Positions 1,831-23,312 of a stretch of DNA of 29,543 nt are shown here, piece by piece (within the stretch, counting starts at the first letter, position 1; each line of letters begins with the position of its first letter). The position numbers were made by a program, and so were the translations under genes. The stretch comes from a bacterium. Its GTDB lineage: Bacteria; Zhuqueibacterota; QNDG01; DTFT01. The stretch spans positions 1 through 29,543 of the forward strand of contig JBFZEN010000151.1 in NCBI GenBank assembly GCA_041306805.1, given 5' to 3'. Below the pieces are notes generated by a model. That model ran no database searches. It was not told the origin of the DNA and worked only from the letters and a program-made list of their open reading frames with translations.

Positions 1831-1870
1831 GAAGATTAAAAGATTGGTAGATTGGAAGATTTGAAGATAA
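1831..1870. repeat. Five imperfect 8-bp tandem repeats
   Basis: gaagatta|aaagattg|gtagattg|gaagattt|gaagataa. Confidence 0.8.
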
Positions 1871-1926
1871 AAAGTTCATGTCTGATTTTTCCACATTTAT
1901 TATTAGATGATTCTTTACTGCAGATC

Positions 1927-1968
1927 CTTTATACTTTATCATTCTACATTCTACATTTATAATTCAAG
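1927..1968. repeat. Six imperfect 7-bp tandem repeats just downstream of the PL11 stop
   Basis: ctttata|ctttatc|attctac|attctac|atttata|attcaag. Confidence 0.7.
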
Positions 1969-5516: not shown

Positions 5517-8480
5517 TTATTTGGAGTCATTTTTGATTTTTGATTTTTGAATTGCCTTGGCCAAAGAGCATCCCTTCAAACCATGGACTCCTTCAACAAC
5601 CATGGACGCATTCAGTGCCGCTCCCGCCCACGACGTATGGGTGTGGTCTTTGGACGTGAAGTACGCTTCATGAACACGGTCGAAACCTTCTTTTTCATAT
5701 CGCCGGGCCACGAGTTCATTCAAATCGATGAAAAAAGCCCCCTCGGACCGGGCGGTTTCCCCGGCCCACAGGCCGTAAGTCTTGTCGATCCGTTTCACTT
5801 TTCCCTCTTCCCATGAATCCCTGGGCACGGGTGAAAGCACGATCGCGGCGGCGCCTTTGGCCGTGGTTTCCCGGATCATCCTTCTCATGTACCATCCGTA
5901 GGTATGCACGGTTTCCGTCTTGCCCGTGGTGTCCATCACCGTTTCCTCGATCTCTTCGCCCGTGCCTTTCAGGGTGCCCCTGGCGCGGCCCGTGTTGATC
6001 GGGCCGTCGTCGTTGTGCCCGAACTGCATCATGACGAAATCCCCCGGCTTCAGGCTGTCCCGCACGGCAGCCCACAGGCCCTGGGTTTGAAATGTGCGGC
6101 TGCTGCGGCCGCCGAGCGCGCGGTTTTCGACGCGGACCTGGGCTGTGTCGAAATACGCCTCCAGGGGGCGCCCCCATCCCCACAATTGATCCTGGCCGTC
6201 ATCCCTGCCGTTCCTGACCGTCGAGTCGCCGATGAGATACAGCGCCGGTTTTCCGCCCTCATTGGATTGGGCAGGCACCGGCCCGATGACGACGAGCACG
6301 CTTTCCCATCCGCCCAAATCGAGCGGCATCGAGGCAAAACCGTCCGCAACCCGGACGCCGTACAGCGGCCTGATGGTCCCCGATTCCCCGTCCCACACCT
6401 GCGCCGTGCCCCTGCCCGCAAGCGAGGCCCTGCACGATGAGGGGATTGAATCTTCATTGAAACAGAAATAGACGTCGGCGTCTTTTATTTTCCTGTGCAT
6501 GATTTTCAGCGAGGGGCAATTTCTGTCCAATTGAACATCCGGTGGCGGAAGATATTCAAGGACATCCCGGCTCAATTCGGCGGCGGATTCACGGACGGAC
6601 CGGGGGATGTCGGCAGCGGGTTCGGCGTAAAGGAACGTCCGGCCGGCCGCCAGAACCGGCCCCCTGCCCATGATGACCACGCGCCCTCCCCTTCCTGCGA
6701 ATTCCCGAAGCCGGTCGACCGTGGATTTGAAAAGAACGCTCGCATCGGGAACGATGACGGCTTTGTATTCCTGCCCGCTGCGGTTGACCAGCCTGTCCCC
6801 CTTGATCCGGACGTCCGAAACGAGCGCCCCTTCATCCACCCAGTCGAAATCGCGCTGGTTTTCCATGAGGGCCCGGGCCAGGGCCACGCTGTTTGTGTTG
6901 GCCCTGGCATCCCCGCACCAGACTGAAGCCGTGGGGACGATCATGGCGGTTTGCGCGGCCGGCCGGCCCTGCGACAGCATGTACGAGACGCGGCGCATGG
7001 TGTCGGCGATGCGCGGGAATTCCGGTGACTCAAAGAAATTTCTTCTTTCCCGCGGGGCCGGGGGAGATGGCCCCGGACCCGGGACACCCTGCGCCTTGAG
7101 CGAATCGGATTGGCCGGCAGCTTCAGGCGGCGGCCGCCTGCCCGCGGAACTGGAGTAGAACATGATCTGCACCATGTTGATGCCGCGCGCGAGCTGGTAG
7201 TCCATCACCCATTTGGCCTGCCGCGGAGTCGGACGATGGGTGTAGGCCGCGAAACTCTCGGTGAACGCCCGCGGTTTGCCGGCCGTATGCGCCGCGGACG
7301 AGGCATACTTGGGATAATCGGCCGTGTGGTCCATCCAGATCTGGCTCCATATGGCGTCCACTCCCGGCGCGGCCGCGTATTTCATGTTCCTGAAAAAGTC
7401 GCCGCCCGACCTCGCAAGGGCCGGCATGTCGTCGTCTTTGTTGAGATGCACGATATAGGAGACACCGTTTTGGGCACACCATTCGTGCTGGACCCTGAAA
7501 AAATTCTCCGCGAAAAGTCGCGACCAGACGTCCCAGTAATCGGCCTTGGCCCGCCGGACCGGATCGGACAATTTCGGCGCAAAGAACAGAGCCGTCATGG
7601 GGCGCACGTCGTAGCCTTTCTCCTTCAAGAAGGCGTCAAAAATGCCGCCCGTCCACGGTATGCCCCTGATGGAATAATCCGGTTCGTCCCCCATGAAACC
7701 CATGAAAGTCCGGCCGAATTCCGGTTTGAAAGCGTTTTTATATCCCTCGTGCGTCCAGGCGAGGAATTGCCGGGCGGCTTCGGGATTGAGGTAATCCATG
7801 AGCGAGGCATTGGTGTCTTTTCCCCGCGTGGGATTGTTCACCGAACGCGTGGGCGACGTCATGAAACCGTGCCTGGCCAGAATGACCTGCCATTTCCCTT
7901 CGGGCGCCGTCCATTCGATCCGTCCGTTTTCGACAGGCAGGGACAGGCCGGTGGAATCGGCGGCGTTGAATGCCGCGGCGGAAACCTCGTCCGGCGCCAG
8001 GCCGCGCGAAACGGCCTGCCCCGGTTCCACATCGATGCGTTCCGATACGGAAAGCGCCTGCATTCTCAGGTCGGGGCGTTCCTCGCTGAACCTTCCCCCG
8101 GCGAATCCGCTCGGGTATTTTCCTTCGTCTTCGATCCAAACCCGCATGTTCCGCTTGCCCGCTTCGCCGACCGCGAACCGGACCAGGTTGAACCATTCCG
8201 GTGAAAGGTAACGCGCGGTCATCCCGTACCCGGCTTCGATCATGACGCCGGTGAACCCGAAGGAGCGGATGGTGTCGAGGTCTTTTTGGATGGTTTCCTC
8301 GTCCACGGGTCCGTCCCATCCCCACCACAGCGTCAATCCGTATTCCGCGGCCGGGTTCCTGAACCGAACGGCCGCTTCTTCCACGGAAGGACGGGTCAAC
8401 TGCTGCCACCAGGCCTTGCCCGCGAAAACGGATTGCACGCACACGCAAACGGCCATCGAGAGACACATTCTGATTTTCAT
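5517..8480 (-). CDS. GH106-like alpha-L-rhamnosidase fused to a C-terminal CE12/SGNH rhamnogalacturonan acetylesterase
   Basis: N-terminal LWWGWDG...YLSPEWF...WIEDEGKYPSGFAGG and FMGDEPD (GH106-like, residues ~1-735). C-terminal LYLIGDST, GGRSSRTF, QFGHND and DHTH (complete SGNH set, from ~6255 down). Signal peptide. Confidence 0.82.
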   Translation of the reverse strand: MKIRMCLSMAVCVCVQSVFAGKAWWQQLTRPSVEEAAVRFRNPAAEYGLTLWWGWDGPVDEETIQKDLDTIRSFGFTGVMIEAGYGMTARYLSPEWFNLVRFAVGEAGKRNMRVWIEDEGKYPSGFAGGRFSEERPDLRMQALSVSERIDVEPGQAVSRGLAPDEVSAAAFNAADSTGLSLPVENGRIEWTAPEGKWQVILARHGFMTSPTRSVNNPTRGKDTNASLMDYLNPEAARQFLAWTHEGYKNAFKPEFGRTFMGFMGDEPDYSIRGIPWTGGIFDAFLKEKGYDVRPMTALFFAPKLSDPVRRAKADYWDVWSRLFAENFFRVQHEWCAQNGVSYIVHLNKDDDMPALARSGGDFFRNMKYAAAPGVDAIWSQIWMDHTADYPKYASSAAHTAGKPRAFTESFAAYTHRPTPRQAKWVMDYQLARGINMVQIMFYSSSAGRRPPPEAAGQSDSLKAQGVPGPGPSPPAPRERRNFFESPEFPRIADTMRRVSYMLSQGRPAAQTAMIVPTASVWCGDARANTNSVALARALMENQRDFDWVDEGALVSDVRIKGDRLVNRSGQEYKAVIVPDASVLFKSTVDRLREFAGRGGRVVIMGRGPVLAAGRTFLYAEPAADIPRSVRESAAELSRDVLEYLPPPDVQLDRNCPSLKIMHRKIKDADVYFCFNEDSIPSSCRASLAGRGTAQVWDGESGTIRPLYGVRVADGFASMPLDLGGWESVLVVIGPVPAQSNEGGKPALYLIGDSTVRNGRDDGQDQLWGWGRPLEAYFDTAQVRVENRALGGRSSRTFQTQGLWAAVRDSLKPGDFVMMQFGHNDDGPINTGRARGTLKGTGEEIEETVMDTTGKTETVHTYGWYMRRMIRETTAKGAAAIVLSPVPRDSWEEGKVKRIDKTYGLWAGETARSEGAFFIDLNELVARRYEKEGFDRVHEAYFTSKDHTHTSWAGAALNASMVVEGVHGLKGCSLAKAIQKSKIKNDSK
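5526..5551 (-). repeat. TCAAAAA heptad element, copy 1
   Basis: Sense strand ttcaaaaa tcaaaaa tcaaaaa tgac; translated as KSKIKND in the last codons of the GH106-CE12 gene. Confidence 0.8.
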
Positions 8481-8522
8481 GGGAGGGGTTCTTTCTATTA
8501 TTGGTGATTCGTGATTTTCCCG

Positions 8523-9923
8523 TCAATTCCCGTACGGCCGGGTGAAATCGGTGAACGGGCTGGGAGGCCAGACCCACGTTTCCACGGGATCGGGACGGCC
8601 CGGGTCAAAGATCCCGGCATCTTCCGCCAGGTATCCGGCCAGCCCGGGGAGGCTTGAGCGGATGCCGTTCACCACGCATTTGGCCAGTTCATAGGCTCCG
8701 TACGGATTGAAGTGCGTGTTGTCCTTGAGTTCGCCCCGCTGGTCCGGAAACGTGCCTGCGGGGTAATGCACGAAAGCCCCGGCGGATTTTTCGGGTCCGA
8801 GCGCCTCGTAGAACGCCTTGCTCATGGCATTCAGGTCGATGAGCGGGGTTTTTTCCTCCGCGGCCGTACGGCGCACGGCTTCCGGATAATCCCCCAGGGT
8901 ATTGACGACGGCGCCCGTGCTGTCGAAATTCCGCCTGTGCACGGACGTGACAAGAACGGGCGTGGCGCCCTTCTTGCGCGTCTCGCGGATGAAATGCCTG
9001 AGACAGTCCTGATAGGACGTGAACGGGTCCGCGTGCGCGGCCCCCGGTTTCTGGTCGTTGTGAGCGAATTCCACGAACAGGTAATCGCCCGGCTTCATGG
9101 CTGTAAGTATTTTTTCAAGCCGGTTCCGGGCCATGAAGCTTTTCAGGGCCTCGCCCGATTCCGCGTGGTTGGCCACGGCGACTCCGGCCTTGAAAAAGCG
9201 CGGAATCATCTGGCCCCACGACGCCCAGGGTTCCCGCGTCTGGTCGGTGACCGTGGAATTGCCCGCCAGGTAAACGGTCACGGCTGAATCCGACCGCCTG
9301 ATGTCGAGGCTGCGAAGGCAGGGCCTCGGGCCGTTGAATTCCAGCGTGAGCTTGTCGTCCCAGTGAAACACGCCGATTTCACGCGGATTCAATTTTACGT
9401 TCCCGCTGTCGGACAGGCGCGGGGTCCGGATGTTGACCGTGAATTTCCGGACCGCGACCGCTCCGTTCTCCGTGCGGACGTTCTCGAGCATCAGCCTTCG
9501 CGACTCGGCCCGGACCGTCGCGGCGGACTCCCCGTTTGCATCGCCCAGTTCGACGGTGACGTCGTAATTGCCCTCAGGCAGTCTGACGGAGAATAAAAAG
9601 GGTTTGATGCCGGTGCAGAATCCGCCCTTGAGCGGGTCCGCGGCGGATGGCCGGATGAAACGGACGCCCGAGATGTCTTCGAACCCGTAACCGAGACCCG
9701 ATGAATAGGGAACGGCTTCGAAAACGCGGATGCCGCCTTCATTGACCGGGGAAGACGGATTGAAAACAAAACGGCGGCTTGCCCGGCCTGAATCGCCGGC
9801 GCCGCCGGATCGAATGGACGCGCCGTCCTGTTTAAGGACCCCGGTCCGGCATCCCTGGTCCGCAATCCCTGAAATCAGCGATAGAACGATGATCGGTACC
9901 CATGTCCGTTTTGTTCCTGCCAT
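8523..9923 (-). CDS. CE12 rhamnogalacturonan acetylesterase with N-terminal galactose-binding-like domain
   Basis: YLAGNST, NHAESG, FAHND and DNTHF SGNH motifs; N-terminal YGFE...FSVRLPEGNYDVTV beta-sandwich; GAGGA SD before ATG 9923. The longer track ORF begins inside a repeat element. Confidence 0.88.
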   Translation of the reverse strand: MAGTKRTWVPIIVLSLISGIADQGCRTGVLKQDGASIRSGGAGDSGRASRRFVFNPSSPVNEGGIRVFEAVPYSSGLGYGFEDISGVRFIRPSAADPLKGGFCTGIKPFLFSVRLPEGNYDVTVELGDANGESAATVRAESRRLMLENVRTENGAVAVRKFTVNIRTPRLSDSGNVKLNPREIGVFHWDDKLTLEFNGPRPCLRSLDIRRSDSAVTVYLAGNSTVTDQTREPWASWGQMIPRFFKAGVAVANHAESGEALKSFMARNRLEKILTAMKPGDYLFVEFAHNDQKPGAAHADPFTSYQDCLRHFIRETRKKGATPVLVTSVHRRNFDSTGAVVNTLGDYPEAVRRTAAEEKTPLIDLNAMSKAFYEALGPEKSAGAFVHYPAGTFPDQRGELKDNTHFNPYGAYELAKCVVNGIRSSLPGLAGYLAEDAGIFDPGRPDPVETWVWPPSPFTDFTRPYGN

Positions 9924-9997
9924 CAGGAATTCCTCTTTTATCATGGAAATTGAAACCATCGTCTGGCCGCCAACACCGGAATCGGCCCGAAAGAGAC

Positions 9998-10090
9998 AAC
10001 CACGGATAAAAACCACGGAAACACACGGATCGGTTATTGTTAATCTTTTGATTCAGTCCACCTGATTCCGTGGCGATTCCATGATTTCGG
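9998..10090. repeat. Intergenic element with inverted CACGGA/TCCGTG arms
   Basis: CACGGA at 10001, 10014 and 10024; opposing GATTCCGTGG (10064) and GATTCCATGA (10075); ~30 bp AT-rich core. Confidence 0.65.
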
Positions 10091-10096
10091 AACTAC

Positions 10097-10142
10097 CCCC
10101 TTGTGGGACTTGTCCCCTTGTGGGACTTGTCCCCTTGTGGGA
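10097..10142. repeat. 17-bp tandem repeat x2.7, each unit a GTCCC-N5-GGGAC hairpin (REP-like)
   Basis: ccccttgtgggacttgt at 10097 and 10114, partial copy 10131-10142; abuts the GH105 TGA (10143-10145). Confidence 0.9.
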
Positions 10143-11633
10143 TCAGGGCATGGATTCCCTGTTCCCCTGGTTGATCTGAACGGCGCCGTCGTTGATGATC
10201 AGCGGTTTGTTTTTCCTGAGCAGAATCATTTCGGAACCGGCAAGCAGGACGGGTCCGTACCCGTGCGCGGCGAATACGCCGGCCGGACGGTAGTAATAAA
10301 AGGCCGGGTCGAAACCCATGCCCGTTCCCACGCATGTGCCCTCCACCTGCCCCTCGGCATTGACCTTGGTGGTGACGGCGTTCCATCCGAGCTGGACGGC
10401 CGGGGCATAGGCCAGAGCGTCTATCCATCCGCGGTTGATGGCGCGGGCCATGCCGAATACGAACATGGCCGAGGCCGAGGTCTCGAGGTATGAATCGTTC
10501 CGGTCCAGGAGCTGGTTCCACAGCCCGTTTCCCGACTGGCATGCGGCCAGCCCGCGGAGATGCGCCCGCAGCTGGTTGAGCACGGCGCTGCGCCCTTTGT
10601 GCTTTTCGGGAAGCACGTCGAGCAATTCCGTCATGGCCAGAACGGCCCAGCCGTTGGCCCGGGCCCAGTGGAATGCGGGGTGCGGCTGCATGGCCTTGAC
10701 CCAGCCGTGCATGTAAAGCCCTTTTTCCTTGACGAACATGCGGTCCGAGAACTGAAGAATTTGTTTAACCGCGTCGTCGAAATATTTTGTTTCGCCCGTC
10801 AGTTTCCCCATCTGGGCCAGCGCGGGAACGCTCATGTACAGGTCGTCGAGCCACAGCGTCTCCGGCTGGGGCCGGCTGCGCGCCAGCGTGCCGTCCTCGA
10901 GGCGCTGCTGTTTCGTGCCGATGTATCGGATATAATTGTCTATCAGAGGCCTCAGACCGCCGCCTCCGCCCGCGCGGAGCATCTTGATCATGGCGGCGCA
11001 CATGGAACCGCTGTCGTCGAGGCTGCGCGGATCCAGAACCGACCTGAACGGCGTTCTCGCCCCGGGTTCGGCCTGCACGCGTGACCTGAAGGCGGGGGCA
11101 AGATCGGCGATGAACCCGAGCCGTTTGTCCGCGTATTGCCTGAACAGCGTGTCGCCCGTGGCCTCGGCCGCGAGCAGCATGCCCGAGTACGTGACTCCCC
11201 ACTCGTAACTGATGATCTGAAACGGCCCGGAATCCATCATGGCTTCGGCCCCGGGATTTGCCTTGTCCGTGATTTCCTCGCGCGTCTGCCGGTTCACCAG
11301 TCTGGCCGGGCTGTTGGCCTCCAGATAGACCCGGATCCGGTTCAGGACTTGCGCGATTTCCTCGACCTTCATCTGGCCGTAGGGCACAGGATATTCCGGA
11401 CGCAGGCGCCCGGGAAACATGGGGCGCGCGCCCGGCGGCAGATCCGGTAAAGCCGGAGGACGAGCCGCGGCGTCCTGCGGAAGCGGCGGCCTATTCTCAT
11501 TCGGCATAGACGCCCTGGTCACGGCATCCGACCTGACTTCCTGCGCCGGACAGTCAGCCGGTAAAACAAGCCAGGGGGTCACTAGGATTCCAATAATTGC
11601 AGGAATCATTTTTAATGTATATTTTTTATCCAT
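10143..11633 (-). CDS. GH105 unsaturated rhamnogalacturonyl hydrolase with Pro-rich N-terminal extension
   Basis: SYEWGVTY, LDDSGSM, LWLDDLYM, WARANGW, YLETSASAM and CVGTG motifs; signal peptide; AGGAGG SD. Confidence 0.9.
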   Translation of the reverse strand: MDKKYTLKMIPAIIGILVTPWLVLPADCPAQEVRSDAVTRASMPNENRPPLPQDAAARPPALPDLPPGARPMFPGRLRPEYPVPYGQMKVEEIAQVLNRIRVYLEANSPARLVNRQTREEITDKANPGAEAMMDSGPFQIISYEWGVTYSGMLLAAEATGDTLFRQYADKRLGFIADLAPAFRSRVQAEPGARTPFRSVLDPRSLDDSGSMCAAMIKMLRAGGGGGLRPLIDNYIRYIGTKQQRLEDGTLARSRPQPETLWLDDLYMSVPALAQMGKLTGETKYFDDAVKQILQFSDRMFVKEKGLYMHGWVKAMQPHPAFHWARANGWAVLAMTELLDVLPEKHKGRSAVLNQLRAHLRGLAACQSGNGLWNQLLDRNDSYLETSASAMFVFGMARAINRGWIDALAYAPAVQLGWNAVTTKVNAEGQVEGTCVGTGMGFDPAFYYYRPAGVFAAHGYGPVLLAGSEMILLRKNKPLIINDGAVQINQGNRESMP

Positions 11634-11650
11634 GACTGCCTCCTGATGAT

Positions 11651-11845
11651 AAACACCGAATCACGCTGAAATCACCGAAAAAGATAGCAATAATTTATAA
11701 TACCCCGGGATAATATTTTTATGATCCAATATATATTTATTCATCCATGTCAATCCATATCATGATAAAAACATCGGTTGGCGATTTATATGTTTCAGTG
11801 TTTTCGGTGATTTTCGGTGTTGAATTCGCATTTCAGTGTTTCGGG
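11651..11845. repeat. Intergenic ~170-195 bp element with inverted ~10-mer arms around an AT-rich core
   Basis: Left arm aaacaccgaa tcacgctgaa atcaccgaaa (11651-11680). Right arm tttcagtg ttttcggtga ttttcggtgtt (11793-11821; reverse complement aacaccgaaaatcaccgaaaacactgaaa), plus an extra tttcagtgtttcgg at 11831-11844. Confidence 0.8.
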
Positions 11846-11872
11846 TTATTGAACGCTTCCCGGTCGATTCCA

Positions 11873-13519: not shown

Positions 13520-13573
13520 GAATCATGCCTCTTGGTTGGATGGCTGCCATGGAGCGATCCTATCGGTCCATTT

Positions 13574-13628
13574 ATTTTGAATTTTTGCATTGTCATTTTA
13601 CATTTTGATCTTTGATTTTTGATTTTAC
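13574..13628 (-). repeat. TCAAAAA heptad element, copy 2
   Basis: Sense strand gtaaaa tcaaaaa tcaaaga tcaaaat gtaaaa tgacaat gcaaaaa ttcaaaat. Confidence 0.85.
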
Positions 13629-13680
13629 AATACGGGTGTCAGCCGGACATTGTTCAGAATTGTGCATCGGACACCCCTCA

Positions 13681-14826
13681 TCAGAGAGCATAAATCGCGC
13701 TGCCGGCAAGGAGGAAGCAGCCCACGCCGAAATCGTCGTGATTCGGCTCCTGATCATAGCCGACGGGCTGGCTGTCCTTCGGTTCCTTTCCCGTGCCCTG
13801 CACAAATCCCAGAAAACCATCCGGGTGCACGGAGTGGGCGGCCATGGCATTCCATGCCTTGACCGCGATTGGCAGATACTTTTCCTTTTTCAGATGCCCG
13901 TTCCTGACTCCCCAGGCCATGCCGTAGGTGATCAGGGCCGTGCCGGTCAGTTCCTTCCCGCCGAAATGCGTGGAATCGTGAAGGCTGACGTTCCAGTAGC
14001 CGTCGGATCTTTGAACGGCCGCGAGCGCGGGGGCCATTTCCCTGAATGTCTGAAGGTACTCTTCCCGGTGAGGGGCGTCGGACGGCAGAATGTCCAGAAC
14101 CCGCACCAGGGCGGCGAATACCCATCCGTTTCCCCTCGACCAATAGCAATTCTTCCCGTTGGGTTCCTGATAGGGCGGAACAAAATCCTTGTCCCTCCAC
14201 CACAAATGGTCCTTGAGGCTGTAGAGACCGTTCGTTCCGTGGAACGCCTTTGTATATATGTACAAATCATACATTTTTTGGAAATAGGCCTTGTCCTCAT
14301 AGATGACTCCAAGCCTGGCGAAGACGGGCATGGCCATCTGCAGGGCGTCTATCCACCACCAGTCGTCGATTTTCGGGCTGTTCACCATGCTGTCCATGGA
14401 TGCCTTGATATCTTGGATCCGTTCCGGTTTCGGGTCCATGAGGAAAAGATCGATATACGCCTGTCCGCAGCACTGGTTGTCCGCGTTCCGGGTGCGGATT
14501 CCGTCGCGAAGCCCCCACTGGTGATGTTCACCCCATTGCACCGCGTAGCCCAGGTATTCCGGTTTCGGATCGATCTGGTGCAGGGCCAGCAAACCTTCGT
14601 AATACACGGCCCTCGTCCAGATATTGCTGGGGCGTCTTCTGTCTGTGATGATGTCTTTCCCGGGATCGGGCCATTTCTTTATGAAATAGGCGTTGGCCAA
14701 TTCCATTTTCTCCACAATCTGTTTTTTATCGGGCAGGTTCTGCGCACGCCCCGGAAAGGGCTGGGTGGACAATAATAAAATGAAGAAAGGATACAACCAT
14801 TTCATTACAACGGATTTGCTGTTCAT
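13681..14826 (-). CDS. GH105 (GH88/105 fold) unsaturated glycuronyl hydrolase, second paralog
   Basis: WTRAVYYEG, ADNQCCGQ, WWWIDALQMAMP, YWSRGNGW, ELTGTA and FGVGCFLLAG motifs; strong AAGGAGG SD. Confidence 0.9.
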   Translation of the reverse strand: MNSKSVVMKWLYPFFILLLSTQPFPGRAQNLPDKKQIVEKMELANAYFIKKWPDPGKDIITDRRRPSNIWTRAVYYEGLLALHQIDPKPEYLGYAVQWGEHHQWGLRDGIRTRNADNQCCGQAYIDLFLMDPKPERIQDIKASMDSMVNSPKIDDWWWIDALQMAMPVFARLGVIYEDKAYFQKMYDLYIYTKAFHGTNGLYSLKDHLWWRDKDFVPPYQEPNGKNCYWSRGNGWVFAALVRVLDILPSDAPHREEYLQTFREMAPALAAVQRSDGYWNVSLHDSTHFGGKELTGTALITYGMAWGVRNGHLKKEKYLPIAVKAWNAMAAHSVHPDGFLGFVQGTGKEPKDSQPVGYDQEPNHDDFGVGCFLLAGSAIYAL

Positions 14827-14846
14827 GCGCGTTCCTCCTTGTCTGA

Positions 14847-15977: not shown

Positions 15978-16062
15978 ATGGTTCTCCAGCAAGAAATGGA
16001 CGCCCGGGGAAAAATAGGAAAATCCAATATGAAATTTTGTTCAGGATAGAAATTTATTTGTT

Positions 16063-16093
16063 CAAAGATACGATATTCACGGCATTTCTTCAA
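16063..16093 (-). promoter_or_regulatory. Putative sigma70 promoter for the PKD-to-PL11 operon
   Basis: TTGAAG (16093-16088), 17-bp spacer, TATCTT (16070-16065). TATCTTTG also fits the TAnnTTTG motif. Confidence 0.5.
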
Positions 16094-16147
16094 CTGTTTT
16101 TTTTTATTTTCCGGGGTCAAACCATTCAGGAAAAACCGTCTAAAAAT

Positions 16148-16188
16148 AAAGGCGCTCCGGGAACTGGTTTCTGTCACGGAGCGCCTTT
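16148..16188 (-). terminator. Intrinsic terminator after the ECF triad
   Basis: Perfect 12-bp inverted repeat aaaggcgctccg (16148-16159) / cggagcgccttt (16177-16188); on the minus strand the GC stem is followed by tttattttt. Confidence 0.8.
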
Positions 16189-16272
16189 TCCAACCGCAGT
16201 GTATTTCAGTCCTGGTTTTGCGTAATCCTCATCAAGTGCTGCTGATGTGTTTTCTATATATATGAAAGGCGT

Positions 16273-17346
16273 TCAGGCCGGCCGTTTTCTCAACACCGTC
16301 GTAAGAACCAGCCCCGCCAGCGCGGCCAGCAGCAATCCGCCGGTCACCCATATCGCCCATCCGTTCACCACGCGCGATTCCACGCGCATGACGTAGTCTT
16401 CCCAGAACAGCCTGTTCCCCTTGTACTTCCACACGGCCCGGTTCCCCTCCACGGTGGACGCGTTGGTGTCATAGATCAGGCCCGGCATGATGACGCTGTT
16501 TTCGTATGAATCCGAATTGAGGTCGAAAACGAATTCCTGCTTCTTAGCCAGCGATTTCATGACGTCATCCATGGGTCCTTTCCATCGGGTCACGGCCCTG
16601 CTCCTGTAGAACTTCGCAAGAAAAGCCGTCAATTCGGCCCCATTTTCGATATTATCGGAGTCAGCCCGCTTGAACGCCGCGAAAAGGCTGTCTTTGCTCG
16701 CACGGATCAACTCTGAGGTAAGCTTCTGATCGGGCATGGTTTCCGACGCGCGCACCAGGGCTGCGAACAATTCCTCGAAATAGGCCTTCCACAGCCACTG
16801 TTCGGTCTTTTCATCGAGATCCAAGGTGTCTTCGTCGATGTAATACATATCCAATTCTTCCCGTTTCAAGAAATCCTGTATCGGCGTGTTGGGATAAGGC
16901 CCGGCGGGTTTGATCGTTTCCGTGTATTCATAGAATGTATTAAACCACCTGAATTTTCTAACGAGACCGGCCTGCACCCTGACCTGCAGGGCGTCTTTCC
17001 CCTGCTTCTCATACAGCCGGTTCATGTCTGCCACTTTTCGAAACCGTTTCTGCGCGATGTTTCTCTTGTTGTCATTCCTTTCCGTCTTTTTTCCGCCTTT
17101 GACGCCGGTTGTCTTCCAGGTTGTATCTTTTTTGTGCGTGATCAACCAGGTCGAATCGACAGGCATGAAAAACGGCCCCGTGAAAACGGAATCCACGGCC
17201 GCCGAATCGCCGGGAACCTCGATGGTCCGCTCGCAGGATCCGTCTGGAAAAATCTTTGTGGTGGTCGTGATTTCCTTGCAGCCGGTAAGGGAGATCAGGA
17301 CGGCGACAGCCGAAAGCAATACCGTCAGCTTGAAGTGGATCTTCAT
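16273..17346 (-). CDS. Putative lipoprotein with additional C-terminal transmembrane anchor
   Basis: MKIHFKLTVLLSAVAVLISLTG-C lipobox; C-terminal hydrophobic helix WAIWVTGGLLLAALAGLVLTTVL followed by RKRPA; its ATG overlaps the anti-sigma stop (ATGA) and has a GGAGG SD. Confidence 0.75.
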   Translation of the reverse strand: MKIHFKLTVLLSAVAVLISLTGCKEITTTTKIFPDGSCERTIEVPGDSAAVDSVFTGPFFMPVDSTWLITHKKDTTWKTTGVKGGKKTERNDNKRNIAQKRFRKVADMNRLYEKQGKDALQVRVQAGLVRKFRWFNTFYEYTETIKPAGPYPNTPIQDFLKREELDMYYIDEDTLDLDEKTEQWLWKAYFEELFAALVRASETMPDQKLTSELIRASKDSLFAAFKRADSDNIENGAELTAFLAKFYRSRAVTRWKGPMDDVMKSLAKKQEFVFDLNSDSYENSVIMPGLIYDTNASTVEGNRAVWKYKGNRLFWEDYVMRVESRVVNGWAIWVTGGLLLAALAGLVLTTVLRKRPA

Positions 17347-18107
17347 ATATTCCCTCCGTGGTTTAGCCATGACCTGAACCGGCTCGACCATTCGGGATGG
17401 CCGGTCAGGACTTGTTCCAATTCGGACGCGTCGAGCCTCTCCGTTTTTATGAACCCGTTGATTTGAGGGCGGTATTTTTGAACGACATCCGCCGGAACCC
17501 CGTTCAGCCTGCGCGCGTTCTCGTAATCGTCCAGCAGTTTTTCAAGATCTTTTTTTCTGACCGAAATCCATTCATCTCCGGCCTGATGACGCATGGATAC
17601 GGGCGCCTTGAGCGGACGCGCTCCGCTCCATTCATTCAATTCGTTCAGCCGGACGGTGAAAGACGGTTCCCCTGAAACCGCGGCCATGCGCTTTTCAAGC
17701 CGTGACAGCCTCTTCAGAACCGTCGCCTCCTGAATGAAAAAGACCCCCGCGATCAAAACGGCCGCGACTGCGAAAACCGGCCTGGCGGCCTCGTGCCGTG
17801 AAAAACCGTCGATCAACGGCAGAATTCCTTTTATGGACCCCACCCGCTTGATCGTCCGGCCCGTTTTTCCTCTTGAGGTGCTTTCCACCGCCGAGGCGAT
17901 GCGTTCCGCCAGCCCCGCCGGATCCGCGGTGCGCGGCGTTTCCAGGCGCGCCGCGTCGAGCAGCCCTTCCATCCTGTTCACGCCGTCCCGAACGGCCGCG
18001 CAGGCCGGGCACCGCTTCAGATGTCTTTCCAGCGCTTCCGCCTGTCCGGGGGAAAGCTCACCCGGCCTGTTCAGGTGCGCGAGTTTTTGATATCGTTTGC
18101 AGCCCAT
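17343..18107 (-). CDS. Zinc-binding (ZAS/zf-HC2) transmembrane anti-sigma factor
   Basis: C3...HLKRCPAC (HxxxCxxC); single TM VFAVAAVLIAGVFFI; starts 1 bp after the sigma stop. Confidence 0.85.
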   Translation of the reverse strand: MGCKRYQKLAHLNRPGELSPGQAEALERHLKRCPACAAVRDGVNRMEGLLDAARLETPRTADPAGLAERIASAVESTSRGKTGRTIKRVGSIKGILPLIDGFSRHEAARPVFAVAAVLIAGVFFIQEATVLKRLSRLEKRMAAVSGEPSFTVRLNELNEWSGARPLKAPVSMRHQAGDEWISVRKKDLEKLLDDYENARRLNGVPADVVQKYRPQINGFIKTERLDASELEQVLTGHPEWSSRFRSWLNHGGNI

Positions 18108-18108
18108 G

Positions 18109-18687
18109 TCATTGCCCCGTTTTGTATTGTTCTTCCATCTTTCCGCGCAGGAATCTCCTCGCGTGGATCAGGTTGTTTTTCACGGATGCCCTGGTCATGC
18201 GCAGCGCCCGTGCCGTCTCATCGATGCTCAGATCCTGAAGGTCCCTGAGAACGAACACCATTCTCTGCTTCGGCGGAAGTTCCCGGGCGAAACAATGGAT
18301 CAACCGCACCGCCTCCTTTCCGTCGAGATCCCGGGCCAAGTCCGCGTCCGGATCGGCAATTTCAATCCGGGTGCCGTTCAGGGGAACCTGTCCTGTTTTC
18401 CCTTTACTCTTTTTCGATTTAAGCGCGTCGAAGCAGACATTCGCGACAATGCGGTAAAACCATGTCGTGAATTTCCTTGCCGGATCGTATTCAGTCAGGT
18501 GTTTCCATACCCTGAGAAACGACTCCTGCACCGCGTCCTCGGCGTCGGCCGCGTTTCCCAGAAAGCGGAAAGCCAGGGCGTAGGCATACGGCTGGTTGTC
18601 GCGCACGAGGTTTCTGAATGCCTCGTTCGGCTCCATCCCGCGGGATCCGGTTTGGTCACAGTGACCGATGTCGTCTTGTCTCGGCAT
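18109..18687 (-). CDS. ECF RNA polymerase sigma factor
   Basis: Region 2 DAEDAVQESFLRVW...FTTWFYRIVAN and region 4 LPPKQRMVFVLRD...SIDETA. The start may be Met18 (18636). Confidence 0.92.
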   Translation of the reverse strand: MPRQDDIGHCDQTGSRGMEPNEAFRNLVRDNQPYAYALAFRFLGNAADAEDAVQESFLRVWKHLTEYDPARKFTTWFYRIVANVCFDALKSKKSKGKTGQVPLNGTRIEIADPDADLARDLDGKEAVRLIHCFARELPPKQRMVFVLRDLQDLSIDETARALRMTRASVKNNLIHARRFLRGKMEEQYKTGQ

Positions 18688-18781
18688 CTATCAATGATAC
18701 GATTGGAAAGCTGAAAAGTAAAATGTGATTCTCTGAGAAAAAGCAACAAGTCAGGCTGTTGGAGGACGTATCGCAATGCTC

Positions 18782-18828
18782 CAGTCCCGCTTTGGCGGGA
18801 TCAGTCCCGCTTTGGCGGGATCAGTCCC
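18782..18828. repeat. 20-bp tandem repeat x2.35, each unit a TCCCGC-CAAA-GCGGGA hairpin (REP-like)
   Basis: cagtcccgctttggcgggat at 18782 and 18802, partial cagtccc at 18822; overlaps the GH115 terminal codons and stop (18821-18823). Confidence 0.9.
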
Positions 18829-21787
18829 CGGCGAACCGCGTTTCATCCGGCCCGAAATAGCCCGGCTCCAGAGTGCATCCGCCGTCGGCAATGATCCTGT
18901 CTATGACGATGCCGGGGTCCACCGGCCAGATTCTGAGCGTGTGCCTTCCCGCGGAGCCTATCACATGCGCGGTCGAAACCAGGGCCGCGTTGCGCAGAAC
19001 GTCCTCCTGCCACCGGATGTCCCTTTCCCCCGTATAGGCCGGGCGCGATACCACGACGGGATTATCGTCGTCCAGCGCGATGGCGTAACGCTGGGCCGAA
19101 TCCGCTTCCATGGACCATGTCGGAAGCATGCGCACCGTCACCGTCCACGCGCCCGGACTGTCTATCCACATGGGGTAATCCAGACGGGGGGAGTCGGGCC
19201 GGATGCGGCCGGGCGCGGTATTGGATGAAAGGGTCACGGATTTTCCGTTGTACCCCAATCCCTCCGCGTCGATCCATGAAGCGTCCATGCCTGCGATCCG
19301 CGCGGACGCGTGTTCCGCTTCCATCACCACGCGGCGGTTGTCCTCGTAAAAGTCGCCCGGACGCATCGAACCGCATTGAGCAGGACGGCCGGCGCTCACG
19401 GGCACCGTGATCGACTTGCCCCCGCCCGAAAAACGGATGCAGGCTTGCGCGGTTTCACCCCCGGGCACTTTGGACCAGTCCGCCTCCACCCGGACGCGGG
19501 CGTCGCCCTTGCCGGACGAACGGTCCAGGCGTATCCATCCGGCGCAGGGTTGGGCCTTCCACGAAAATTTCCGTTTTCCCGTTCCGAAGACATCCACAAA
19601 ATACCGGCTTTTCGACAACGCATGGAACTGCGGCAGTCCGGGCGCTTCGGCGTCCTGTTCCGATGCCGTGACCGCTTTCCCGCTTCCTTCGACCGCAATA
19701 CCCCAGCCGGCCGCATCGGGAACCGCCGGAAAAGCCGTTTCGGGTATGCTGAAAACAGGCAGGTCGCGGGGGTGGTCTGACATCATGTGTTTCCATTTTC
19801 CGTCCGCCGTCTTTTCATTGTAGGCGGCGGTCAATTCATGGATGGCCTGCTCGGCGGAACGGGCCTGATCGAGCATGCGGGCCGCGCACGCGCGTCCCTG
19901 CCCGGCATAGGCGAAATACCGCGCCAGAAAAATCCCCTTTTCATTCATGAGCGCGGCCGCCCGGACCGGGTATCCGATTATCTCGAAAAAAGCGCCCCGC
20001 TGTTCGGGTTTCAATTTCTTCTCGACGGATTCGAGGGACGAAACCAGGGAACGGAACGCGTCGAGCCGCTTTTGCGCCTCGTCCCCGTTGGCGCTGACTG
20101 AAAACGCGGGCTTGGACAGAAACGGATGATTTGCGTCGAAGCCCATGTGCTCGGGCTTGCGTTGAAAGTGCAGCCGGTAGGTTTCCTTTAAAAGCGGCAG
20201 GACATCCTTCGCGATGCCGCTCCCGAAGTCCCTTGACAAAACGGCAGCCATGCCGTCCTCGCCGCTTCCGGGATTCCAGGCCAGTCTCAGCGCGCATTCA
20301 ATTCCGATTTCGGCGGGTTTGATGTCGCCGGCGTTGAAAATCCAGAACGTCCGGGCGCCGGTGTCCCACGCCTTCGTCATTTCCTCGCGCACCAGGGCGG
20401 GATGCGTCGAATGCAGCCAGAGGTAATCGTAAGGCCTTCCCCAATAGGAAATGTGGTAGTACACGCCGGCGCCGCCGCTTCGTTTTTGTTCCGCCGCGTT
20501 CGAGAATTGGCGCACATATCCGAAATTGTCGTCGGGCCAGACCAACGTGACGTCTCCGGGAATGTCATCGGCCCGTCGGTACAAATCGAGCGCCTCCTTG
20601 TAGGGGCAGAATATCTGGGGCACCCGGAAAACGTCCGGATCGACCCATTTCGCGAGCAGACTCCGCTGGTCGCGTATGACGCGTTCGAGCCTCTCCGCCT
20701 GTTCGTCGGGCGTGCCGCCGCCCGGCATGCCCGAGTCGTGTATGCCCCGCATCCCCAACGTGTAGATGGATTCGTATCGCGCGTTCTGCCTGACGCGGTC
20801 TTCCCAGTAGCGGAGCACGCCTTCGCGGTTTGTTTCGTAATTGTATTCGCCCGCGCCGTCGCGCATCCACTCGTCCACGTTGTTTCTCAGCATCTGCTCG
20901 CAATGGGATGAGCCCATCACGATGCCGAATTGATCCGCCAGTTCCCTGTTTTCCGGGTAGTAATTGAAGGCGCGCGTGCCCGGGTGCATGGCCGGCCACA
21001 GGACGTTTCCCCTCAGCCGCAGGATGAGTTCGAATATTTTTTCATACGCCCCGGGGCCGATGTTGCCTGTCTGCGCATCGAGCGTCTTGGCGGACCAGGG
21101 GAAAAGCCCCCAGTCTTCGTCATTCAGAAACAGGCCGCGGTACTTCACCCCGGGGGGGCCCTGCCTGTGCCGCAGCCCGGCTGGAAAGGCGATTTGTTTT
21201 GCCCTTCGGGGCGGCACGTCCGCCCACCAGACCCACGGCGAAACCCCGATGGACCCGGACAACTCGTATATGCCGTATACGGTGCCCCGCCTGTCGCTGC
21301 CGGCTATCACCAGGGCGCGGTCCATTCCCCGTACGGGATGTTCCACGACCCGGATCACCCAGCTTTCCCATTGCCCCCGCAGGCCTTCGGCGTCGATCGC
21401 CCCCGCCGCGGCAAGACTGTCAACCAGTCCGCCTCTTCCCAATTGCCCCATGATGACGGCCTGTTTGGAGGCGTTTGAAACGCCGCGGACCACCGACGGC
21501 TTGATGCCCGTCACGGACAGGATGTCTCCGGCCAGATCCTGGACGGCCCTGGCCACGGCCCTGTCTTGATGTGAATCACAATAAAGGACGGCGGCGGTTT
21601 TCCCATCAGCCAGGAAGAAATCGCCCTTTTGAGGCGGACTTGAAGGCTTCAATGTGGAAGCAACGACAGCCTCGACCGTCCACGCCGTGAGAAACAAAAG
21701 ACGGAAGAAACGCCTGAGCCGCCCCGCAGAAGATTCTGAAAAACACGTCACACCATCTATTGCTGTTTTTGATTTTTGATTTGTCAT
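18821..21787 (-). CDS. GH115 alpha-glucuronidase
   Basis: LVIAGSDRRGTVYG..ELS...GVSPW.WWAD, YRGLFLNDEDW, LWPAMH, GSSHCEQM, MRGIHD, WPDDNFGY and GVYYHISY motifs; C-terminal VMEAEH beta-sandwich. The start is uncertain (21787 lies in a repeat; alternative GTG at 21751). Confidence 0.9.
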   Translation of the reverse strand: MTNQKSKTAIDGVTCFSESSAGRLRRFFRLLFLTAWTVEAVVASTLKPSSPPQKGDFFLADGKTAAVLYCDSHQDRAVARAVQDLAGDILSVTGIKPSVVRGVSNASKQAVIMGQLGRGGLVDSLAAAGAIDAEGLRGQWESWVIRVVEHPVRGMDRALVIAGSDRRGTVYGIYELSGSIGVSPWVWWADVPPRRAKQIAFPAGLRHRQGPPGVKYRGLFLNDEDWGLFPWSAKTLDAQTGNIGPGAYEKIFELILRLRGNVLWPAMHPGTRAFNYYPENRELADQFGIVMGSSHCEQMLRNNVDEWMRDGAGEYNYETNREGVLRYWEDRVRQNARYESIYTLGMRGIHDSGMPGGGTPDEQAERLERVIRDQRSLLAKWVDPDVFRVPQIFCPYKEALDLYRRADDIPGDVTLVWPDDNFGYVRQFSNAAEQKRSGGAGVYYHISYWGRPYDYLWLHSTHPALVREEMTKAWDTGARTFWIFNAGDIKPAEIGIECALRLAWNPGSGEDGMAAVLSRDFGSGIAKDVLPLLKETYRLHFQRKPEHMGFDANHPFLSKPAFSVSANGDEAQKRLDAFRSLVSSLESVEKKLKPEQRGAFFEIIGYPVRAAALMNEKGIFLARYFAYAGQGRACAARMLDQARSAEQAIHELTAAYNEKTADGKWKHMMSDHPRDLPVFSIPETAFPAVPDAAGWGIAVEGSGKAVTASEQDAEAPGLPQFHALSKSRYFVDVFGTGKRKFSWKAQPCAGWIRLDRSSGKGDARVRVEADWSKVPGGETAQACIRFSGGGKSITVPVSAGRPAQCGSMRPGDFYEDNRRVVMEAEHASARIAGMDASWIDAEGLGYNGKSVTLSSNTAPGRIRPDSPRLDYPMWIDSPGAWTVTVRMLPTWSMEADSAQRYAIALDDDNPVVVSRPAYTGERDIRWQEDVLRNAALVSTAHVIGSAGRHTLRIWPVDPGIVIDRIIADGGCTLEPGYFGPDETRFAGD

Positions 21788-21820
21788 TTTGATATTTGAT
21801 TTTTCATTTTTTATTTTAGA
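21766..21820 (-). repeat. TCAAAAA heptad element, copy 3
   Basis: Sense strand aaaaaa tgaaaaa tcaaata tcaaaa tgacaaa tcaaaaa tcaaaaa. Confidence 0.85.
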
Positions 21821-21826
21821 AGCCTC

Positions 21827-23167
21827 TCATTCAGGAGTAATCCTGTACAGCCCCGATCCATGCGCAGGCAGAACCGCGCTGAATCCGTTTTCATGTCTGC
21901 CCAAATCCGTTTTCTTCCATAGATCTCTTACTGCACCGCTTCCGGACAATCCCAGATCGCCCCATGAAACCGCAATCTCCGACGGTCCGCCGTCGCCGAT
22001 ATTGAACAGCGCCAGGTATTTCGATTTCGAGCCGGGAATGTCAGCCGCCCACGCGACGGAATCGCCTTTCCTGAAAAGCTCGCGGTTGTTCGCGCTGTTC
22101 TGGTTGACGGCCAGCACCTCGCCGTTGGTGAGCAGCGAGATCGTGAACGCGTCGCTGGTCGGCAGGTCTCCCCCCATCATGAGGGGCGAGCGGAATATGC
22201 TCCACAGCGACATCAAAGTGACCTGTTCGTCGCGCGTGAAACGGCTCGGCCTGTCGTCGCCGCGCTCGGCCCGCAGGCCGATGTGCCCCAGCGGCAGCAT
22301 GTCCGCGTCGGGCCAGCCGCCCGGTGCGACGTGGGGCGCCCATTTTGCGCAAAGATCGAACTGTTCCTTCAAATCCTGCCAGCGGTCCCAGAAATCGTTC
22401 GAGATGCGCCAGAGCTGGGCATTCGCCTTGAGATGACCGGCCCTGTCCAACGGCGCGGGACCCGGCGACAGGCTGAGCACGATGGGTCTTCGACATTGAA
22501 GAATGGCCTTATGCAACGCCTCGATTTCTCCGGCATGATAGGGCGAGCTCATATCGTCGGCCTTGATGTAGTCCACGCCCCACGACGCGTACAGCGACAG
22601 AATGGAATTGTAATAATCCTGCGCCCCCGGCCTGTTCATGTTCACGCCGACCATGTCGGTCAGCCATGCGCACAGGCTCGTGGTGTCGGCCGCGTCGCGC
22701 GCCTTGTACCGGCTTTGATGGATGGGCGTGTTTTGCCTGAAGGCCTGGCGGGGAATTCCCCGCATGATGTGTATCCCGAATAGGAGCCCCTTTTGATGGA
22801 CGTAATCGGCCAGGGGCTTGAAGCCCTTTCCCTTCGCCGCCGACGGAAAACGGTTCAACGCCGGAAGCAGCCTTCCGTATTTGTCAATGACAAGCTCGGC
22901 GTCTTTTCTGTAGCCATGCGCCCCGGCCTTGGGCTCGTACCACTGGATGTCGACCACGATGGTGTTCCATCCGACCTGCGCCAGACGGGCGGACATGAAA
23001 TCGGCCTGGGCCTTCACCTCAAACTCGGTGACGGACGGCCCGTAGCAGTCCCAGCTGTTCCAGCCCATGGGCGGAGCCGGGGCGAGCAATACCTTGTCTT
23101 TGGATTGGGCATTCAGACACAATCCGAATATTGAAATCATGCCGGAAATCTGTCGCCATTTTTTCAT
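21827..23167 (-). CDS. GH27 glycosidase, probably beta-L-arabinopyranosidase-type
   Basis: PPMGWNSW, VVDIQWY, WGVDYIKADD, WRISNDFWD and PDADMLP motifs; C-terminal RDLW Greek-key domain; GGAGG SD before ATG 23167; signal peptide. Confidence 0.88.
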   Translation of the reverse strand: MKKWRQISGMISIFGLCLNAQSKDKVLLAPAPPMGWNSWDCYGPSVTEFEVKAQADFMSARLAQVGWNTIVVDIQWYEPKAGAHGYRKDAELVIDKYGRLLPALNRFPSAAKGKGFKPLADYVHQKGLLFGIHIMRGIPRQAFRQNTPIHQSRYKARDAADTTSLCAWLTDMVGVNMNRPGAQDYYNSILSLYASWGVDYIKADDMSSPYHAGEIEALHKAILQCRRPIVLSLSPGPAPLDRAGHLKANAQLWRISNDFWDRWQDLKEQFDLCAKWAPHVAPGGWPDADMLPLGHIGLRAERGDDRPSRFTRDEQVTLMSLWSIFRSPLMMGGDLPTSDAFTISLLTNGEVLAVNQNSANNRELFRKGDSVAWAADIPGSKSKYLALFNIGDGGPSEIAVSWGDLGLSGSGAVRDLWKKTDLGRHENGFSAVLPAHGSGLYRITPE

Positions 23168-23264
23168 TATTCTTATCCTCCACGACGGTGAATAGGAGTC
23201 GGATGGTTCCGGATTATTGTTATTCATTAATATTCTTTTCTTGAGCAAATACCAATATTTTAAC

Positions 23265-23312
23265 ATTTTGAATTATGATCCGTCATTTTGATTTTTGATC
23301 CTTGATTTTTTA
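23265..23312 (-). repeat. TCAAAAA heptad element, copy 4
   Basis: Sense strand aaaaaa tcaagga tcaaaaa tcaaaa tgacgga tcataat tcaaaat. Confidence 0.85.

Follow-up and report, generated by a model that had tools for sequence, protein, structure and literature searches.

The window analysed here (the whole stretch of 29,543 nt) is contig JBFZEN010000151.1 of assembly GCA_041306805.1, read on the forward strand, from a bacterium of the Zhuqueibacterota. It encodes a pectin/rhamnogalacturonan (RG)-degradation cluster with nearly all of its genes on the minus strand (Table 1), and also an extracytoplasmic function (ECF) sigma/anti-sigma pair and a helicase. Four runs of a TCAAAAA-type heptad lie at gene junctions of the window and are referred to below as copies 1 to 4. 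All four are in the sense of the genes (the plus strand reads TTTTTGA), and all four contain the core AAAATGAC. Their coordinates, sense strand and core had been given correctly in the original prediction, which was made from the DNA sequence without database searches. The GC content that it assigned to the locus (60%) was too high, as the window is 57% GC; the runs themselves are 18-24% GC and the spacers are much more AT-rich than the window. As discussed below, these four elements are probably solo left arms of a small-gene cassette related to the intervening sequences (IVS) of 23S rRNA.

Table 1. Heptad copies, other repeat elements and gene content of the window (GH, glycoside hydrolase family; PL, polysaccharide lyase family; ORF, open reading frame)
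Feature	Position	Strand	Description
Copy 1	5526..5553	-	Putative solo left arm, (TCAAAAA)x3 + TGAC; profile E-value 3e-4
Copy 2	13575..13635	-	Putative solo left arm with the family-typical extension TGACAATGCAAAAATTCAAAA; profile E-value 7e-6
Copy 3	21767..21825	-	Putative solo left arm, 2 nt after the alpha-galactosidase TGA (21827-21829); profile E-value 4e-9
Copy 4	23262..23312	-	Putative solo left arm, ~20 nt after the GH28 stop (23332-23334); profile match 23262-23309, E-value 1e-6
Stub ORF, 26 codons	13516..13596	-	Opened by the copy 2 core ATG; MTMQKFKINGPIGSLHGSHPTKRHDS and stop
Hairpin before copy 2	13640-13677	-	GC-rich (GGGTGTC ... GACACCC), between the GH88 stop and copy 2
Inverted arms, 35 nt each	11652-11686 / 11787-11821		ACACCGAAA / CACTGAAA units; 100-nt very AT-rich loop
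Junction element	10000-10095	-	Inverted arms of CCACGGAAT / ATCCGTGG units, no ORF
17-mer array	10097-10142	-	Perfect CCCACAAGGGGACAAGT x2.7, from the GH88 TGA
20-mer array	18782-18828	-	Perfect GACTGATCCCGCCAAAGCGG x2.3, directly after the GH115 stop
Hairpin with TTTATTTTT	16148-16188	-	15-bp GC-rich hairpin, 93% complementary, then TTTATTTTT in sense; after the gene ending at 16273
8-mer repeats	1831-1874		AATCTTCN units
7-mer repeats	1940-1957		AATGTAG x2.6
Helicase	26847-29375		ResIII/DEAD type
Cluster content		mostly -	GH43, RG lyase PL11, GH35/42-like, GH106+GDSL, GDSL esterase
Cluster content, continued		mostly -	Two GH88/105, two GH28-like, GH115, GH27 alpha-galactosidase, GH5

The heptad runs stand out clearly from the rest of the window. 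The pattern TCAAAAATCAAAAA, with up to two mismatches, is matched 13 times (0.47 expected); all of these matches are on the minus strand and inside the four clusters, and none of 100 shuffles reached 13 matches. Period-7 arrays are reported by the program TRF at each of the four sites. A left-arm profile was trained on 62 copies from other genomes, belonging to other phyla, with the window excluded. This profile recovers exactly four sites in the window, all on the minus strand and none on the plus strand (E-values in Table 1), and for each copy 0/2000 dinucleotide shuffles equalled the real score. Because a foreign-trained profile finds exactly these sites and no shuffle matches them, the four copies can be regarded as members of a homologous family rather than as artefacts of composition, as the original prediction had held. 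Copies 3 and 4 share the 7-7-6-TGAC register described there, which is also the family consensus (..TCAAAAATCAAAATGAC..). Copy 1 has the register 7-7-7 and copy 2 has an additional TGTAAAA unit; the number of heptads varies both among the copies and among relatives. The sense strand of the arm is free of stops in two of three frames, while the TTTTTGA repeats of the opposite strand put a TGA in every frame within three units. Rfam covariance models had no matches in the window at E-values up to 1, and the window contains no rRNA. No intrinsic terminator was found at the arms, which are A-rich and unstructured in sense and are not overlapped by any terminator-like site.

All four copies are placed in sense between co-directional genes. 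The upstream stop is 2 nt away at copy 3 and ~20 nt away at copy 4, in agreement with an earlier description of the copies as lying at or just after a stop codon; that description does not suit copy 2, which begins ~46 nt past its stop and behind a hairpin, or copy 1, which overlaps the upstream ORF and is read through. Copy 1 supplies the final 11 codons (..QKSKIKNDSK) of this GH106/GDSL ORF, with the stop at 5517-5519 just past the arm; it can form such a C-terminal tail because the arm is free of stops in sense. The downstream GH35/42-like gene, the likely start of which is at 5509 (MKTMPKRILF.., a signal peptide), is in the reading frame set by the copy 1 core ATG (5530-5528). Copy 2 lies in a 161-nt spacer between a GH88 stop (13681-13683) and a GH28-like start (13519). 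The hairpin in the same spacer is not followed by a U tract in sense. The core ATG of copy 3 (21787-21785) opens the 988-amino acid (aa) GH115 ORF. In the relative L005, the alternative GTG start of GH115 is CTG, leaving the ATG of the arm as the only plausible start codon. Read from this ATG (21655-21787, minus strand), GH115 has a long signal peptide (MTNQKSKTAIDGVTCFSESSAGRLRRFFRLLFLTAWTVEAVVAS) with a twin-arginine-like RRFF motif. The GH115 orthologue of another relative, L001, begins at a different ATG with its own Shine-Dalgarno (SD) sequence. Copy 4 precedes the alpha-galactosidase start (MKKWRQ, 23167, SD GGAGGA) by ~95 nt. Its core ATG opens an ORF of only 8 codons, and a weak sigma-70-like match (ATGACG-18-TAAAAT) overlaps the copy.

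The same arm is found in many other genomes. One genome per species was scanned for the 20-nt core pattern AAATCAAAWATCAAAA(N)TGAC, which gave at least 120 stretches; the counts that follow are among the 124 genome matches listed. By record title, these belong mostly to Patescibacteria/Saccharibacteria, Omnitrophota and Planctomycetota, with further matches in Elusimicrobia, Nitrospirae, Edwardsbacteria, Pacearchaeota, Bacteroidota and others. Conservation extends beyond the 20 nt searched (..AAAATGYAAAAATCAAAAATCAAAATGACAATGYAAAATTYAAAAT..). The flank TGACAATGCAAAAT is common to foreign copies and copy 2, the extended flank includes TGACAATGCAAAA (also in copy 2) and the flank variants TGACAAATCAAAA and TGACAGATCA of foreign copies resemble copies 3 and 4. 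In 62/124 matches the arm has its reverse complement no more than 150 nt further on, and the two form a long AT-rich inverted repeat with a median span of 108 nt. Five of these two-armed examples were folded as RNA, four of them giving strong structures (z -2.5 to -5) and the fifth, L026, a z-score of -0.5. The ORF-less hairpins are intergenic in 61/62 cases, mostly between co-directional genes. Intergenic solo arms between co-directional genes occur in both orientations (10 sense, 7 antisense). Arms inside long ORFs are in sense in 27/27 cases, because the sense arm is free of stops in two of three frames and TTTTTGA is not. In five Patescibacteria metagenome-assembled genomes (MAGs; L093, L034, L091, L124 and L108), the arm is translated in frame as ..KSKIKNQNDN.. 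within LepA/EF4, alanyl-tRNA synthetase (AlaRS) and other proteins; in L093 an entire hairpin is translated in frame inside a conserved gene. Arms 150-1500 nt apart were considered as the ends of large cassettes and rejected, as the content between them consists of ordinary genes (MurG, IlvC, GatB, FtsE and others) and the arms are thus independent. Since only 4 matches were found in 2.9 million viral contigs, the element is not primarily phage-borne. A search of full hairpins and cassettes from six loci against Rfam returned only a tRNA and sub-threshold chance matches.

A search of the ORFs in the arm loci with a four-helix-bundle consensus identified eight ORFs, four of which are confirmed by Pfam as PF05635 (23S rRNA-intervening sequence protein). 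Inverted arms composed of short tandem repeats flank every one of them. In two of the loci, an Omnitrophota MAG (L115) and a Pirellulales MAG (L006), the arms around the PF05635 ORF are the heptad/AAAATGAC element described here; other copies use other repeat units (TAGCCAC, AGCTGTT and CCAATAA). A relationship to four-helix-bundle (TIGR02436/23S-IVS-like) cassettes had been proposed in the original prediction and is borne out by these PF05635 ORFs, which are bracketed by the arm and its reverse complement.

To describe the layout, 34 metagenome loci (L126-L159) encoding the L115/L006 ORF subfamily were retrieved, and all are cassette-containing versions of the kind anticipated. The order of parts is constant: upstream stop, A-rich heptad arm, ORF of ~120 aa, TAA or TGA stop, T-rich arm and next start. 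The left arm ends ..AAAATGCAAAATGAC.. and the ATG of the ORF is inside it (MQNDKAKFKKEFKKR.. or MTKQKF..). This start and the first ~8 codons lie within the left arm with no SD, and a SKIKNQNDKSK-like peptide is the translated arm. The right arm (TTTTGCATTTTGATATGTAATTTTGATTTTTGA..) is T-rich and the reverse complement of the left. A AAAATGAC-type core (with at most one mismatch) is upstream of the ORF in 28/34 loci, and a few loci have GCGCAAAG-type arms on both sides instead. The core ATG was rejected as the usual cassette start, being in frame with the ORF in 7/34 loci only. For most of the loci, the start is found one heptad further upstream (AAAATGCAAAATGAC; MQNDKAK..), such that it is in the arm but not always at the core ATG. 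All of the complete cassettes (28/28) fold with the arms paired around the ORF (25-64 arm-arm pairs). In these 28, the ORF ATG lies a median of 24 nt past the upstream stop, and the next start a median of 62 nt past the ORF stop; a same-strand neighbour is present on each side in 26/28. Together with the intergenic position of the hairpins and the sense orientation of the arms in ORFs, this bears out the bias in junction and strand that had been anticipated. Left arms form more stable pairings with the right arm of their own cassette than with right arms from elsewhere (-29.6 vs -25.6 kcal/mol; 3/5000 permutations), in keeping with selection on pairing. A cassette follows one same upstream gene in several metagenome contigs that are not related to each other (L143, L144, L147 and L150-L153). 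This upstream gene ends ..GKLxDPRKYL and probably encodes the large subunit of isopropylmalate isomerase, and the next gene begins MAKAHVY. The repeated site may be either a long-conserved position or a hot spot.

The window holds none of the other parts of this cassette. No four-helix-bundle (PF05635-like) ORF was found by phmmer in the window or in loci L001-L005 at E-values up to 10, as had been stated for the window. A pattern search, an inverted-repeat search and the profile on both strands detected no right arm in the window, and no terminal inverted repeats or target duplications were found at the copies. Predicted RNA structure is also absent (z +0.5, -1.0, +0.5 and -1.2). Because the copies match the left arm only, in the same orientation and place, and have neither ORF nor right arm, they are read as solo left arms and not as complete cassettes. 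Our preferred explanation, to which we give a probability of roughly 0.68, is that all four are left arms orphaned from an IVS-like small-gene cassette, vestigial and partly reused as a leader or start codon. The original prediction had offered two options. Solo footprints or non-autonomous copies of a junction-targeting, presumably mobile cassette is the better of these. The other, mRNA processing signals, is plausible for the two-armed forms but unlikely for the window copies, because these have no partner arm and no predicted structure.

The history proposed for the window copies is as follows. A complete cassette occupies the short spacer between two co-directional genes, and its arms are predicted to pair in the transcript into a stem of ~25-60 bp around the ORF. 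The family also includes ORF-less forms, consisting of two arms and a short loop, and solo arms. Long inverted repeats carrying internal direct repeats are known to be unstable. As the cassette arms are long inverted repeats built of direct repeats, and so deletion-prone, the ORF and right arm are likely to have been lost by deletion at all four junctions. The remnant would be an unstructured, stop-free, A-rich sense stretch that now acts as a spacer or leader. The ATG of the arm may have become the start codon of the downstream gene at GH115 and possibly also at copy 1. At copy 2, the arm ATG instead opens a stub ORF ending on the ATG of the next gene. The first residues of this stub (MTMQKFKI..) match the N-terminus of the cassette protein (MTKQKFKKEF.. 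/ MTMQ..), and its TGA overlaps the downstream ATG (ATGA). Among the matches listed, the core ATG starts ordinary genes (MurG, IlvC, CoaE and others) in 6/62 solo arms vs 0/61 hairpin copies. Judged from these sequences, partial reuse of the arms as a leader or start codon is likely.

Relatives of the cluster show both persistence and polymorphism of the arms. Copies 3 and 4 are at the same junctions, nearly unchanged, in L005 (92% aa identity), and degenerate A-rich heptad runs occupy these junctions in L001 (84% aa identity). The foreign-trained profile also detects the orthologous sites in relatives. As both relatives keep the arms in place, copies 3 and 4 are old and inherited. The copy 2 junction is 161 nt long with the arm in the window vs 39 nt without it in L170 (from the same sample as L001), an instance of the presence/absence polymorphism that had been looked for. 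Among relatives of the alpha-galactosidase at ~70% identity synteny is lost, allowing no allele comparison for copies 3 and 4, and no relative covering the copy 1 junction was found. The junction at 11634-11872 (a 239-nt spacer before GH88) carries a two-armed inverted repeat of ACACCGAAA-type units in both the window and L170, where the loop is different (~165 nt). Only a right-arm remnant, in a 72-nt spacer, is left at this junction in the closest relative, L169 (90%). The repeat-armed element here is thus the second that is polymorphic, and one-armed remnants are therefore produced in this lineage by deletion.

Several points weigh against orphaned cassette arms as the explanation. A filled allele, carrying the ORF or the right arm, was not seen at these four junctions in any of the relatives, and for this reason we infer the origin of the copies from complete cassettes or hairpins at these sites. 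The arm-free junction of L170 could reflect either an insertion in the window lineage or a loss in L170. That all four copies are in sense is weak evidence alone, given the mixed orientation of intergenic solo arms elsewhere. Some of the taxonomic labels of the MAGs may be wrong, and part of the 124 genome matches may be ordinary coding or leader sequence rather than members of the family. Lastly, comparison of the window with L005 gives some sign of constraint: 106/110 arm positions are identical vs 588/695 at third positions of codons (p = 3e-4), a difference that sits uneasily with the arms being wholly inert relics.

This conservation bears on the alternative that survives best, in which the solo arms are selected cis-elements: unstructured A-rich leaders that recruit ribosomes without an SD, or entry sites for RNase E/Y. 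In this way they would control how well the downstream glycoside-hydrolase mRNAs are translated or how stable they are, a role that is compatible with a cassette origin. The AT-rich heptad character is kept in L001 (84% identity) despite its GC-rich genome. However, the arms are no more conserved than the remaining spacer sequence in the comparison with L005 (p = 0.23), and the signal of constraint is not specific to the arm. The arrangement of starts is similarly divided. Copies 1 and 3 are directly at starts that have no good SD, the core ATG starts GH115 here and housekeeping genes in 6 other genomes, and the cassette ORF itself starts within the arm without an SD; copy 4, on the other hand, is ~95 nt from a start with its own strong SD, and the copy 2 junction works in L170 without any arm. 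A selected role of this kind is conceivable, if somewhat doubtful.

It is improbable that the copies are recent, still mobile non-autonomous elements, similar to half-sites of miniature inverted-repeat transposable elements (MITEs), that target stop-start junctions. Mobility would account for presence/absence at the copy 2 junction, the local density of copies (4 in 29.5 kb), the near-identity of the arm sequence across phyla and the in-frame arms in conserved Patescibacteria genes (LepA, AlaRS). Copies 3 and 4, however, are at the same junctions in relatives with 92% and 84% aa identity and have diverged along with them, and the four copies are too unlike each other for a recent burst. The window copies also have no terminal inverted repeats or target duplications, and a transposase-like partner was not found in the 29.5-kb window.

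Somewhat less credible still is a function of the arms as internal promoters, with the core ATGACA/ATGACG serving as a -35-like hexamer for the downstream gene. The sigma-70-like match over copy 4 (ATGACG-18-TAAAAT with TG) is accompanied by another at the 5' edge of copy 2, but neither copy 1 nor copy 3 is overlapped by one, and such sites are not clearly enriched (13 vs 7.0 +/- 2.8 expected). At copies 1 and 3, the start codon is inside the arm or 21 nt away, which leaves no room for a -10 element and leader, and full cassettes use this sequence as coding or stem. That the four runs arose as unrelated microsatellites, each expanding separately within an AT-rich spacer and none connected with a cassette, is very hard to credit: slippage clearly occurs, as heptad number varies between copies and relatives, but the non-repetitive AAAATGAC core is in all four copies and family-specific extensions are in three, quite different repeats are found in other spacers of the same window, and the foreign-trained profile (E-values 4e-9 to 3e-4, 0/2000 shuffles) contradicts this explanation.

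If the copies are cassette arms, their closest known relative is the S23p-bearing IVS of 23S rRNA (Coxiella burnetii, Leptospira and others). The Coxiella IVS has a 28-bp terminal inverted-repeat stem and 2-3 tandem heptamers (GACAGAT) directly before the S23p ATG; the heptamer number varies among strains, RNase III cleaves at the first repeat and the protein is probably not made (PMC4990558). PF05635 ORFs are also reported from rRNA insertions of candidate phyla radiation (CPR) bacteria and described there as functionally uncharacterised (CPR rRNA insertion study). S23p-bearing IVS are regarded as selfish elements (PMC4990558; CPR rRNA insertion study). Like these, the full cassettes hold a PF05635 ORF in the loop of an inverted-repeat stem, with tandem heptamers of variable number immediately before the start of the ORF, an SD that is poor or absent, and ORF-less versions. 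The heptamers upstream of a start are shared by the window copies, in the form of period-7 arrays ending in AAAATGAC. Unlike S23p IVS, the elements sit between protein-coding genes and not in rRNA helices, with the window copies flanking glycoside-hydrolase genes. Their arms are longer (~45-50 nt) and built of TCAAAAA rather than GACAGAT, and the ORF start is inside the arm. The window copies further differ in being one-armed and without an ORF; they cannot form the stem, whereas full cassettes do so in 28/28 cases. Processing of the stem by RNase III, by analogy, would apply to the two-armed relatives only.

Other short repeats share some of these features. Correia elements of Neisseria serve as substrates of RNase III, and Rickettsia palindromic elements are found inserted in frame within genes. 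Like both of these and the repetitive extragenic palindromes and bacterial interspersed mosaic elements (REP/BIME), the present elements are short multi-copy hairpins at junctions, co-transcribed with their neighbours; the in-frame arms in Patescibacteria LepA and AlaRS are similar to the Rickettsia elements in particular. In this comparison of features they are set apart by the lack of sequence similarity, of a terminal repeat with target duplication and of an associated transposase, and by their tandem-heptad arms and the PF05635 (or PF13366) ORF of the full versions. Cyanobacterial short tandemly repeated repetitive (STRR) sequences are tandem heptanucleotide arrays that are intergenic and present in many copies per genome. 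By description, the present arms resemble these arrays. STRR have other repeat sequences and another host group, and no published link between them and inverted arms or PF05635 ORFs was found. The cassette protein is in the same four-helix-bundle superfamily as Avd, the accessory protein of diversity-generating retroelements (DGRs), and one cassette ORF has a sub-threshold match to PF22296 (bAvd). Unlike DGR Avd, it is not associated with a reverse transcriptase or template/variable repeats near the examined cassettes or in the window.

A limited literature search found no description of junction cassettes, only rRNA-borne IVS/S23p and DGR Avd. The junction cassette family is widespread and, as far as this search went, appears to be undescribed. 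We know of no origin or function established for 23S rRNA IVS and their S23p/four-helix-bundle ORFs in over 30 years. The same architecture, a heptad-repeat stem with a PF05635 ORF, is found here between ordinary genes in many phyla, along with ORF-less and one-armed forms that are likely products of its decay. In this light, rRNA would be one habitat among others of a general element that lives at junctions, and IVS biology (RNase III processing, operon segmentation and translation starts) could be tested in mRNA contexts. A broader and quite tentative proposal is that PF05635/PF13366 cassettes form one pan-bacterial class of intercistronic intervening sequences, situated at stop-start junctions and in rRNA helices. 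RNase III might excise them and so segment operon mRNAs, and they might decay to hairpins and solo arms that are reused as SD-independent starts and donate the start codon (GH115; MurG, IlvC, CoaE). In practical terms, the arms give spurious low-complexity tails (..KSKIKNQND..) at N- or C-termini and mis-called start codons in gene predictions, and they provide a simple sequence marker for tracing cassettes in metagenomes. The window itself would hold only vestiges, and the interest lies in the family revealed.

The window contains further repeats at its junctions. The ORF-less element with CCACGGAAT / ATCCGTGG arms lies in the strongly structured region 9990-10145 (-57.9 kcal/mol, z -4.6). 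In L163 (7994-8356), arms of this type enclose a 120-aa PF13366 PDDEXK_3 ORF, and from this resemblance the window element appears to be an ORF-less form of a second IVS-type cassette. The window element is present in L169 and absent in L170. The adjacent 17-mer array, the unit of which can form a GTCCC/GGGAC hairpin, is absent from the orthologous L169 junction (90% aa identity). The 20-mer array after GH115 resembles it in position and style, with a CCCGC-CAAA-GCGGG hairpin in the unit. The 8-mer and 7-mer repeats are in the 349 nt that separate the GH43 gene from the RG lyase gene. The first ~2.1 kb of the window are clearly lower in GC (43-50%) than the remainder.

The hairpin followed by TTTATTTTT constitutes a conventional terminator, and the cluster is therefore probably not one operon. 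The ResIII/DEAD helicase adjoins the sugar-degradation cluster. In the syntenic relative L001 (1129-6145), genes for an N6/N4 DNA methyltransferase and a nucleotidyltransferase/HepT pair come before the helicase. This gene content suggests that the helicase neighbourhood may be a restriction- or defence-type island beside the cluster.

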